This document shows positions 601 to 3,600 of a DNA stretch of 64,000 nucleotides, in pieces. The notes below the pieces were generated by a model, which saw only the letters and a program-made list of their open reading frames with translations, was not told where the DNA came from and did no database searches. Position 1 is the stretch's first letter, and every line of letters starts with the position of its first letter. A program made the position numbers and the translations under genes. Source of the DNA: Lytechinus pictus (taxonomy: Eukaryota); assembly GCF_037042905.1 (NCBI RefSeq), contig NC_087251.1, positions 2,234,001-2,298,000 on the forward strand. The letters are read 5' to 3'.

Positions 601-3600
601 GTATAAATACAGTGTTTCTTTTAATTAAGGTTTCGCTCTCTTTTCCTCAGTTTTTCAGCCACTGCTAAAGTCATTTAGAGCTTGAAGGGTCTAATAGGGA
701 ACATTCATTTCATGAACGTTTTCAGTCCTGACAAGTTGTCATCTGATAGATATCATAGTAATAGTCAGACACTTGAACTTCTGCTATAATTCTCATATTA
801 TCTGTAATCATTTCTCAATATTCGACCTTTCTCATCTTCATGAAGTGAATGCATTATTTTCAACCTTGAAATAATGACATCCCTGTTGGAAAGAACTAAT
901 TGTCACACAGACTACGCGAACATATTATTCTCACTCTTAAAATGCTCAAATTCAACAGTGAAGATATATTTTCATACTGTGGACACCTCGACAGTGTGAC
1001 TATTCACAGCGTGATCACATGGTCGACTATGTGAATATGTTATTCATACCGTTGAAATGCTCAAATTTAACAGTGTGAATGTGATTTCACATTGTGTACC
1101 ACACTGTGAACACAATGTGGTACACTGTGTTTTTTCCAGGAGGGATATCTTGGCACAGGGGCGTCGATCCATTTTTCAGATTGGGGGGGGGGGGCAAAAT
1201 CATGAATCAACGTTCCAAAGGCGCTCGATCACACAAAACAAACAAACAAACCCACACACACACACACATAGGCCTATATATATATATATATATATATATA
1301 TATATAGAAATGAATCAAAGCAATAGCTTTGATCCAGCTGAAGCATGGCGGCTTGTCATTGTTCGAAACCCACCTTCACCCGACAAAGGAAATTATAATT
1401 GGTATAGTGTCGAAAATCTGTCTATCTGACGGTCAATCGGAACGGGGTCGCCCTAGCCACTAACCCGTCTCTGTGGTCTAGTGGTTAAGGCACCGGCGTT
1501 CAAAGCTGGGGGCCCGGGTTCGATTCCCGGCAGAGACATTTTTTCGGCATCACCAATTTTTCCAAAGGGTAGATAGCTCTGGGGAACCTTGATTTAAGCT
1601 ACGCCTACCATTGTTCTCTTCATCCATTTCTTTACAATATATATATATATATATATATATATATATATATATATATATATATATATATACATATATATAT
1701 ATATATATATATATATATATATATATATATACATATATATATATATATATACTTATTTATTTATGTTGATATATATATATGACTCATGAGAAAGAGACAC
1801 ATATCTCACCAACAAAGGTACCTGTTTAGGACTGTTTGTAGTAACTCATGAGGAGGATACATATATCACTACACAGATAATGCGAGTGCCGAGAGCGAGC
1901 TGAAATTTCTTTATATTTTATATTCTGACCTGAAAGCTTGATATTCTAAGCATTTTTGGTACCAATGATTAAGATGGGTATCTTAAACAATAGATGCGAG
2001 CGCGAAGTGCGAGCTGAAAATTTTGATATTTCGATCTGAAAAAATTGAGTTTAATGGACGTTTTTAATAAAGAACAAAATATATATCCAACAAAAGATTA
2101 TTGCAAATCGAAGCGGGAGTTCTTTTGAGGTTTAGAACTGAAAACGGGACATTCTATTCACCTATTTAATCATGAAAAGTATGGGTTTTTGCTACAGAAA
2201 TGATGCGAGCTGAAAATTTTTATATTCCAATCTGAAAAAGCGGACATTTTGAGCACGATTCTAAATAAAGAACGAGTTGTGTATCTAAATCTCGCTTGCT
2301 GATTTCTGTGTTACAACATTACAATCTTATTTTATTTTTGCACATGCGGAATTATTTGGGGGGAAAAACGATATGTTTGCCCACCCAAATATTTTCATTG
2401 GTGGGGCGATCGCCCCCCCCCCCCCCAGGATCGACGCCTCTGTCTTGGCATATTGATCTATTTTTGAGATTAAAAAAAAAAAGTCGTTAGTCTTAAAATA
2501 TCAGTACAAAATGTTTAAACTGATCCACAGGCCTGTCAGTTTTAAATGATTTGTAGTTCTGACTCTCGATTTTCTATCAGAGCCTAGGGTCGTGGATTCA
2601 TATCTCTCTGCAAGATTTTAATCCAAATTGTGCTGTAGTCGACCCAGGTAAAGAAAATTGATACTCTGTAGGACCTGTTTATATATCTGTAGAGGAAATG
2701 CTACATGCCAATTCTCCCACAAGCGACGACTTGATATCATACCATTTAGAGCTCATCTAGGTAGTATTGATGACATTTAATAATAATAGATTATTCATAC
2801 ATCTGAAAAAAATCCTCAATGTGTTTTATCAGAATCTACGTAATTTAACGGCAATATGAAAAAAATTAGAGATTTTTATTGGTGGTTTCATAATAAAATT
2901 CCAAACTGCACATCGCCAATTCTTTATATATATATATATATATATACATATAATTATATATTTATATGTATTTATATGTATTTCTAATATTTAAGGACGT
3001 TCAACGGTTATCCATGTCATTTTCATCAAACTTTGCACATAGATACTTTAGCACCTGAATATTCCAAATATGCAAAAATTAACATGCGTTCATGTGCTTG
3101 ATATTTTGCTATAGAGCTTAAAAAATCACCCAAATTGATATTCTTAAGAATTGCGCGTTCAAAAGAATTTGGCATTTTTAGACCTCACGAGATCACTACA
3201 ATGAGTTTAAACCTCTATTACTCAGTCAAAACCCATGAAAATTTAATTTAATTTCGCAAAAATATCAATAATAAATGCTTAAGATGCTATTTGCTATTTG
3301 TTTGCTGTTTTAAGTCTAACAGCACGGTTACGGTCAGTTCTTAAAAACGATGTGAAAGATAACAAAAATCCAATCTAGAAACTTGGGAAGTATAAAAAAA
3401 AATGCTGCACATAATTCAAAACCCATGTCATTTTCACCAAACTTTGCAAAATTGTAGAGGAAGATATACCTTGTTTTCAACTGTAAACACTTTTATTAGA
3501 GCAATTGTAATTTTTAAAACACCAAAAACGCGCCAAATGCTTTGTATCTATGTGAGGAAAAATTCCAAACCACTGTACCATTTATTCAAACTCTGGTTCA

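Follow-up and report, generated by a model that had tools for sequence, protein, structure and literature searches.

Animal retrozymes have been proposed to be non-autonomous relatives of Penelope-like elements (PMC7229834; bioRxiv 10.64898/2026.07.22.740005). Penelope-like elements of the Naiad type prefer (TA)n targets, are 5'-truncated and are without canonical hammerheads (PMC8557442), and in the SINE (short interspersed nuclear element)-like hammerhead repeats of schistosomes, an RNA polymerase III (Pol III) promoter within each unit drives the next unit of the tandem (PMC6765202). A repeat that shares features with each of these was identified in a window of 64,000 nucleotides from Lytechinus pictus (NC_087251.1, positions 2,234,001 to 2,298,000); all coordinates given here are positions within this window. 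Between 1314 and 1640 on the forward strand the window contains a truncated piece of a high-copy repeat, and inside this piece lies a transfer RNA (tRNA)-shaped module with the anticodon UCA, complementary to the stop codon UGA. It is proposed, with a probability of roughly 0.6, that the cloverleaf is the promoter and RNA module of an abundant non-coding repeat, probably mobilised by Penelope-like elements, and that it probably does not decode UGA. A high-copy repeat with a complete Pol III tRNA gene, a stop anticodon and a terminator of its own fits neither SINEs nor hammerhead retrozymes. No description of the element was found in the literature searched; subscription journals, repeat databases and supplements lay outside that search, and an earlier description may therefore exist.

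ARAGORN made one tRNA call in the whole 64-kb window, at 1467–1538 on the forward strand with the anticodon tca, and Rfam model RF00005 matched the same positions over its full length (60.9 bits, E = 9.8e-11, gathering score 29). The 72-nt cloverleaf that a first-pass annotation had drawn from the letters alone is therefore real. When pairs were assigned by position, the acceptor stem (7/7) and T stem (5/5) were entirely Watson-Crick, while the D stem (4/4) and anticodon stem (5/5) each included one wobble, U11.G24 and G29.U41 respectively; the description of the cloverleaf as fully paired holds if such wobbles are counted. The bases expected to make tertiary contacts were in place (U8-A14, G15-C48, G18/U55, G19-C56 and U54-A58). 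The anticodon loop reads G32 U33 U34 C35 A36 A37 A38, the variable loop is 4 nt long (GGGC) and position 73 is A. UCA, U33 and A37 fit the canonical suppressor loop; G32 does not, as a pyrimidine is canonical at this position. The isolated 72-mer folded modestly better than shuffled sequences (z = -2.0, 5 of 200 as good), and so it is the covariance-model score, not the energy of the fold, that provides strong evidence for a tRNA.

The remaining components of a Pol III gene were located by motif and T-run scans on the forward strand. An A box occurs at 1474–1484, a B box at 1518–1526 in the T loop, and a run of six T residues (T6) follows position 73 directly (1539–1544), resembling a Pol III terminator and presumably acting as one; a second run, T5, is found downstream at 1557–1561. 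The position of TCA at 1500–1502, immediately after U33 in a GTTCAAA loop, was recovered from the sequence, from ARAGORN and from the pair table. Accordingly, the boxes, the adjoining T6, the anticodon, the short variable loop and the atypical G32 were all as the first-pass annotation had given them. Another motif resembling a B box occurs in the 5' flank at 1361–1369, some 50 nt from where the copy begins on the left; with the majority letter at 1365 it still agrees with the consensus, no matching A box accompanies it, and it may be due to chance.

A UCA anticodon is also found in tRNA-Sec, which has a long variable arm, a 13-bp acceptor-T helix (9/4), a 6-bp D stem and G73. The module, in contrast, has 7/5 stems, a 4-bp D stem, a 4-nt variable loop and A73, and RF00005 was the best model in its clan. 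As previously noted from the variable loop, this UCA cloverleaf is of the structural class tRNA and not tRNA-Sec; the label of SeC that ARAGORN attached to 1467–1538 is taken to stem from the anticodon alone. Copies of the repeat will inflate the counts of 'SeC' or 'suppressor' genes in tRNA annotation of the genome. In the available text of PMC8557442 the single mention of tRNA concerns tRNA-Sec, some Naiads encoding selenoproteins; no link was found between the module and selenoprotein-encoding Naiads or selenocysteine.

The module belongs to a repeat that is present in most of the public runs listed. Words sampled from the 330-nt stretch around the tRNA were present in 20 of the 24 listed runs, 18 of which contained at least half of them (13 studies), and runs of merely 5 and 10 million letters contained 0.69 of the words. 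Two runs on record as RNA contained shares of 0.45 and 0.10, and X15, used below, may consist of RNA as well. Near-identical sequence was also present in runs coded as organisms B, C and D, although two such runs may carry host DNA as a minor part. Contigs were compared to the stretch for four public runs (X1, X9, X11 and X15), a comparison that misses copies less than 80% alike. In X1, 8,506 contigs fell on the stretch, of which 6,272 were alike at 95% or more, and the summed depth at the anticodon was 744,674, compared to 17–65 for the eight long X1 contigs listed. The depth ratio was 370 to 44,000, by overlap correction; this is a ratio of summed depths rather than a copy number, and is read as hundreds to thousands of copies at least.

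The ends of these contigs showed that the window copy is incomplete. Family sequence departed from the window before 1314, where loose ends were seen in 52 X1 contigs and 2 X9 contigs, and it left the window sequence again at approximately 1640, with loose ends after 1628–1647 in all four runs. Therefore, the copy is a truncated piece in which the tRNA is internal rather than at the head; family sequence precedes the tRNA for at least 153 nt and follows it for about 100 nt. Single contigs spanned the tRNA in X9 (1407–1579, 1 difference) and X11 (1318–1602, 3 differences). Depth was higher toward the right end of the stretch, and starts were seen at 1314 and at 1358. The window holds this single truncated copy and no second one; the loose ends are compatible with a tandem arrangement, with no joint back to the start among those listed. 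Two X15 contigs of 1,079 and 1,432 nt matched only the tRNA and its immediate edges (1458–1540 and 1461–1545) at about 90% identity, which suggests, from these alignments, that there are related families with the same tRNA module in other flanks.

The first-pass annotation had offered the Pol III head of a repeat family as one origin for the module. The abundance of contigs bears out the repeat family, while the family sequence upstream removes the head. tRNA-derived heads of SINEs are 5'-terminal, decayed, and read on into the body of the element. This repeat resembles such elements in having tRNA-derived A and B boxes within a high-copy, non-coding unit, but its tRNA is internal and is closed by T6; with family sequence upstream of the tRNA, and with T6 and T5 between it and the body, a SINE head was rejected.

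Variation among copies was unevenly distributed. Variant shares are summed contig depths in one run (X1) and not copy counts, and position 1442 was excluded from counts of sites because the letter in the window is private. There were 27 changes at 2% of depth or more, those listed comprising 24 alleles at 21 sites; the other three are taken to lie below 3.6%, the lowest best share among the 40 listed. At shares of 3.6% or more, no variable site occurred among the 72 positions of the tRNA, compared to 17 of 140 in 1327–1466 (Fisher p = 8e-4), and 1 of 78 sites varied in the 3' flank at 1539–1616 (p = 0.004 against the 5' flank). With a 2% cut-off and all three unlisted changes assigned to the tRNA, the difference was still observed (p = 0.034). 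Common variants of the 5' flank reached 12–49%, while there was no common variant within the tRNA. The 30 nt just upstream of the tRNA were the most variable part of the family (9/30 sites, against 8/110 further up; p = 0.002), although this region was picked after looking. Active tRNA genes in human and mouse have conserved bodies and hypervariable 5' flanks (PMC6130373), and by analogy with such transcribed genes the source copies are probably transcribed by Pol III.

Among the changes listed, the only one in the anticodon was from TCA to TCT, accounting for 0.22% of the X1 depth (32 contigs) and for 4.1% in X15 (3 contigs). In none of the four runs did an A-to-C change, which would create TCC, reach 2% among copies at least 80% alike. 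The anticodon is not random among copies, therefore, but is dominated by TCA, so that the random anticodon loops named by the first-pass annotation as grounds for refutation were not seen. These patterns could in principle reflect a neutral relic in a young repeat, in which the tRNA looks intact because one master copy was amplified recently. Such a relic would be consistent with the similarity of most X1 contigs (the 6,272 of 8,506 noted above), with a 3' flank as invariant as the tRNA, and with diverged pieces of the tRNA in X15 that have insertions in the anticodon stem. However, common variants are many in the 5' flank of the same copies, whereas the tRNA has none that reaches 3.6%. Nor was the module more than 51/64 identical to any compared tRNA, yet all stems and tertiary pairs are kept, which suggests a long divergence under structural constraint. 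A relic was accordingly considered rather unlikely.

The source of the tRNA was sought through patterns taken from its parts. A pattern combining acceptor strands and T arm found four metagenome loci, all tRNA-Arg (three TCT and one CCG); D loop plus T arm found 22 viral-contig loci, comprising 21 tRNA-Gly(TCC) and one tRNA-Glu(TTC); a longer D-arm pattern found one locus, tRNA-Glu(TTC). Exact D-arm patterns had no match in viral or metagenome contigs. Since the comparison genes were chosen by these patterns, identity in the searched parts is built in; the genes were reduced to distinct sequences and included none from a sea urchin. Over 64 positions, identity was 36–40 with the two Glu genes, 47–51 with Arg and 32–46 with Gly. 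The anticodon loop agreed at 5/7 positions with Arg(TCT) and most Gly(TCC) genes and at 3/7 with Glu. Individual parts pointed in different directions: the D stem matched one Arg gene at 7/8 positions and the acceptor stem was Arg-like, matching Glu at 4/14, while A73 and the variable loop of 4 nt agree with the Gly group and the D loop has U20 where the four compared Arg genes have A. A36 and U2-A71 are unlike the identity elements of tRNA-Gly and, as does U20, speak against decoding.

It had been suggested that the D loop and T arm match tRNA-Glu, and that a one-base shift in register of a TTC anticodon produced TCA. The first observation stands, but the match applies also to tRNA-Gly(TCC) and does not extend to the acceptor stem. 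The second is not supported, given the poor agreement of Glu in both the loop and the acceptor stem and an Arg or Gly loop matching at up to 5/7; a derivative of tRNA-Glu was rejected because Glu is not closest to the body of the module. TCA is one substitution from TCT, TCG or TCC, so that no register shift of tRNA-Glu is needed. To judge from these alignments, Arg or Gly appears to fit better than Glu as the ancestor, without a choice between the two. The anticodon may then have arisen through one inherited substitution in an Arg (TCT or TCG) or Gly (TCC) anticodon, fixed in the source copies.

A complete cloverleaf with U33, A37, A and B boxes and a terminator, and with TCA nearly fixed among copies, could also yield a working opal suppressor, charged with Trp, Gly or Arg and tolerated by the host. 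A mobile element would then have spread a functional UGA-reading tRNA gene to hundreds or thousands of sites, which would amount to natural opal suppression that the host either tolerates or controls. Engineered Arg, Gly and Trp tRNAs with UCA suppress UGA in human cells, where they are tolerated with low read-through at native stops (PMC6379413); they share an ordinary cloverleaf and the UCA anticodon with the module. However, the edited suppressors keep one cognate body and were shown to be charged, whereas the module has a mixed body and G32. G32 and the mixed identity elements make decoding unlikely. The copy number is also very high for a suppressor, and no CCA-tailed end occurred among the 16 of 408 loose ends listed, a weak indication from contigs only. 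A working suppressor was therefore judged very unlikely, as was its dispersal to so many sites, and the tRNA probably does not decode UGA.

Prediction of the acceptor stem depended on the leader. With leaders of 10 nt or less, the acceptor stem was predicted to form (0.8–1.0), which favours a suppressor, but in a long transcript it was not. A 13-nt leader abolished the predicted acceptor stem (0.005; none of 200 shuffled leaders was as low). This was rejected as evidence that masking by the leader accounts for host tolerance, because natural tRNAs often behave likewise when folded behind the leader of their own locus (4 of 17 with 13 nt and 7 of 17 with 20 nt), and leaders of human tRNAs are 2–5 nt long (PMC6130373).

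In the predicted fold (-121.4 kcal/mol), the whole 330-nt stretch becomes a single extended rod, and the anticodon hairpin lies close to its tip. Two runs of shuffles gave z = -6.6 and -7.3; none of 41 background stretches from the window went below -5.3, and three natural tRNAs in their own 330-nt contexts gave z = 1.5, -0.2 and -0.8. Enforcing the cloverleaf raised the energy to -102.6 kcal/mol, a cost of 19 kcal/mol relative to the rod. According to the list of helices, the flank at 1419–1466, which includes the 30 most variable nucleotides, can pair, with imperfections, with the D arm, the T arm and the 3' strand of the acceptor stem; the duplex of these 48 nt gave z = -2.9, with 11 of 1000 shuffles as good. 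Further out, 1339–1416 pairs with 1541–1622 (z = -5.3, 0 of 1000 shuffles), with limits taken from the fold itself. The two whole flanks without the tRNA co-folded weakly (z = -2.0). Within the predicted rod, the anticodon stem is kept (probability 1.0) and the other arms are paired away. Elsewhere in the window, 54501–54830 is another strongly folding stretch (z = -5.3 on 15 shuffles).

A rod of this kind invites comparison with animal non-LTR (long terminal repeat) retrozymes, which are likewise short, non-coding, high-copy units of a few hundred bases with a proposed Penelope-like partner (PMC7229834). Unlike them, the part of the repeat examined here has no hammerhead, and instead has an intact tRNA gene with a terminator; the word tRNA is absent from the main text of the retrozyme preprint (bioRxiv 10.64898/2026.07.22.740005). 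A search for type I hammerheads found no core on either strand of 1307–1640, the rest of the unit being seen solely as 30-letter loose ends. A near-match at 1338 was rejected, since its GAAA is lost in 94% of depth and no ribozyme family occurs among the Rfam matches. It is conceivable that the tRNA module replaces the hammerhead, with host enzymes of tRNA processing cleaving multimeric transcripts in the anticodon loop or at either end of the tRNA, and a tRNA ligase then joining the product into a rod-shaped circle as template for reverse transcription. The lack of a hammerhead core in those 334 nt, and of any hammerhead among 27 Rfam matches at E up to 10, agrees with this, as does the anticodon stem that stays formed in the rod; for animal retrozymes, tRNA ligases are the most likely agents of RNA circularisation (PMC7229834). 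In the rod, however, neither the acceptor stem nor the T stem, on which RNase P and RNase Z depend, is formed; circles or multimers of the RNA were not observed, although contigs would not reveal them. Processing of this kind seems improbable.

The piece was inserted into a microsatellite. The 330 nt lie between (TA)16 at 1275–1306 and a degenerate (AT)72 tract at 1637–1780, identified by TRF as what would be the left and right parts of one target. An X11 contig is identical to the window over 1573–1640 and then diverges, and 1637–1640 are common to the element and the TA tract. At the left, comparison with contigs showed that the junction letters at 1307–1313 are absent from the upstream continuation of the family. 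A second TA junction was seen in X15, where a contig starts at 1358 right behind a TA run and has a different flank; insertion into (TA)n was thus seen in two cases only, the window copy and this junction. A short inversion is present at the ends, 1306–1312 being the reverse complement of 1625–1631 (7 nt), and may be due to chance.

TA is a common target of transposons, and a foldback element or miniature inverted-repeat transposable element (MITE) that captured a tRNA and was moved as DNA by a transposase would also have self-complementary flanks. Indeed, the 5' flank aligned with the reverse complement of the tRNA and 3' flank with a score of 39, which none of 1000 shuffles attained. However, the ends of the window copy differ from those of the family, another copy starts at 1358, and the terminal inversion extends over merely 7 nt. 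Terminal inverted repeats at fixed ends, by which a MITE or foldback would be recognised, were not found, as no repeat exceeded 7 nt and the copy ends are not family ends. Such an origin was considered highly improbable.

The preferred interpretation, that the tRNA is a promoter and RNA module of a repeat moved by Penelope-like elements, draws on several of these systems. The (TA)n target, truncated insertions and lack of a canonical hammerhead recall Naiad and other endonuclease-positive Penelope-like elements, although the repeat has no open reading frame (ORF) and the available text on Naiad describes no tRNA module (PMC8557442). A Pol III promoter inside a repeated unit is shared with the schistosome repeats, but these are hammerhead-bearing (PMC6765202), whereas no ribozyme was found in the present repeat, whose complete cloverleaf runs directly into T6. 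The reverse transcriptase of Penelope-like elements is the probable means by which the repeat spreads, and a role as Pol III promoter and RNA module of the repeat is the likely reason for the retention of the tRNA. The boxes and the variable upstream flank suggest that Pol III would read source copies from the A and B boxes, and most transcripts would stop at T6 to give an 80-nt pre-tRNA-like RNA. Read-through, or transcription by host Pol II, may provide a long rod-shaped RNA that a Penelope-like reverse transcriptase could copy at a nick in a TA tract; truncated pieces such as the window copy would result when copying stops early. The repeat is best filed as a ribozyme-free, tRNA-bearing variant of the Penelope-type non-autonomous repeats, of which it is a putative member.

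Several observations weigh against this interpretation. The terminator is its weak point, since T6 right behind the tRNA should stop Pol III, and a promoter role requires either read-through or another polymerase. The equal invariance of the 3' flank means that constraint is not specific to the cloverleaf, and the shares come from one run in which subfamily letters are not independent events. Of the 114 pairs of the predicted rod, 7 are G.U, and a strong fold was obtained for the opposite strand as well (z = -4.8); the rod may thus go back to a DNA palindrome that has decayed. Where 5'-flank variants fell on rod pairs, the pair was kept in 7 of 15 cases (p = 0.11); among paired flank variants, transitions kept the pair in 7 of 8, which was not significant (p = 0.06). 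With respect to decoding, the function of tRNAs engineered to carry UCA shows that A36 alone does not rule out charging.

If the tRNA acts as a promoter or processing signal, the repeat illustrates how ribozyme-free repeats parasitic on Penelope-like elements produce their RNA. An animal's response to numerous tRNA genes with UCA can also be examined here in a natural setting: either the RNA is stopped at some identifiable stage, for which G32, the lack of a synthetase and masking by the rod are candidates, or UGA is read through in vivo.

The insertion is nested within a larger element. A sequence of 1,287 bp at 1156–2442 contains both the repeat and the microsatellite; its terminal inverted repeats agree in 13 of their first 14 letters, and it is flanked by an 8-bp target-site duplication (1148–1155 and 2443–2450). 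Its anatomy is that of a MITE, possibly a hAT-like one. It also contains an internal repeat of approximately 100 bp that is found again at 35.5–39 kb.

The window is animal DNA, with forward-strand exons that match EGF, CUB, C-type lectin and 7TM domains. GRL101-like receptors from a sea slug and a brittle star, at 44–48% identity, are the only named relatives of the 7TM exon, and the exons at 432–600 and 3888–28371 (+), with EGF, CUB, C-type lectin, LDLa-like and 7TM matches, probably belong to a gene for a GRL101-like receptor. The exon-like stretch at 432–600 has no Pfam match and the EGF exon is at 3888–4007; the repeat is probably intronic between these two, in the sense orientation. Exons of a neurotransmitter-gated ion channel occur at 43050–44782 (-). 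Other mobile sequences include broken ORFs of a hAT-like element at 6383–7483 (+), with a DUF4371 match below the curated cut-off, and a fragment of a non-LTR retrotransposon reverse transcriptase at 60479–61465 (+). A non-LTR ORF region at 49497–51991 (-) encodes, in two frames, an endonuclease and a reverse transcriptase with zf-RVT; inverted regions rich in (GTA)n lie on either side of it (48851–49411 and 52380–52954). Tandem repeats comprise a 34-bp minisatellite at 28364–28733 (10.9 copies, 98%) and a 15-bp tandem that occurs twice in inverted orientation, at 57214–57421 and 58863–59175, about 1.5 kb apart.

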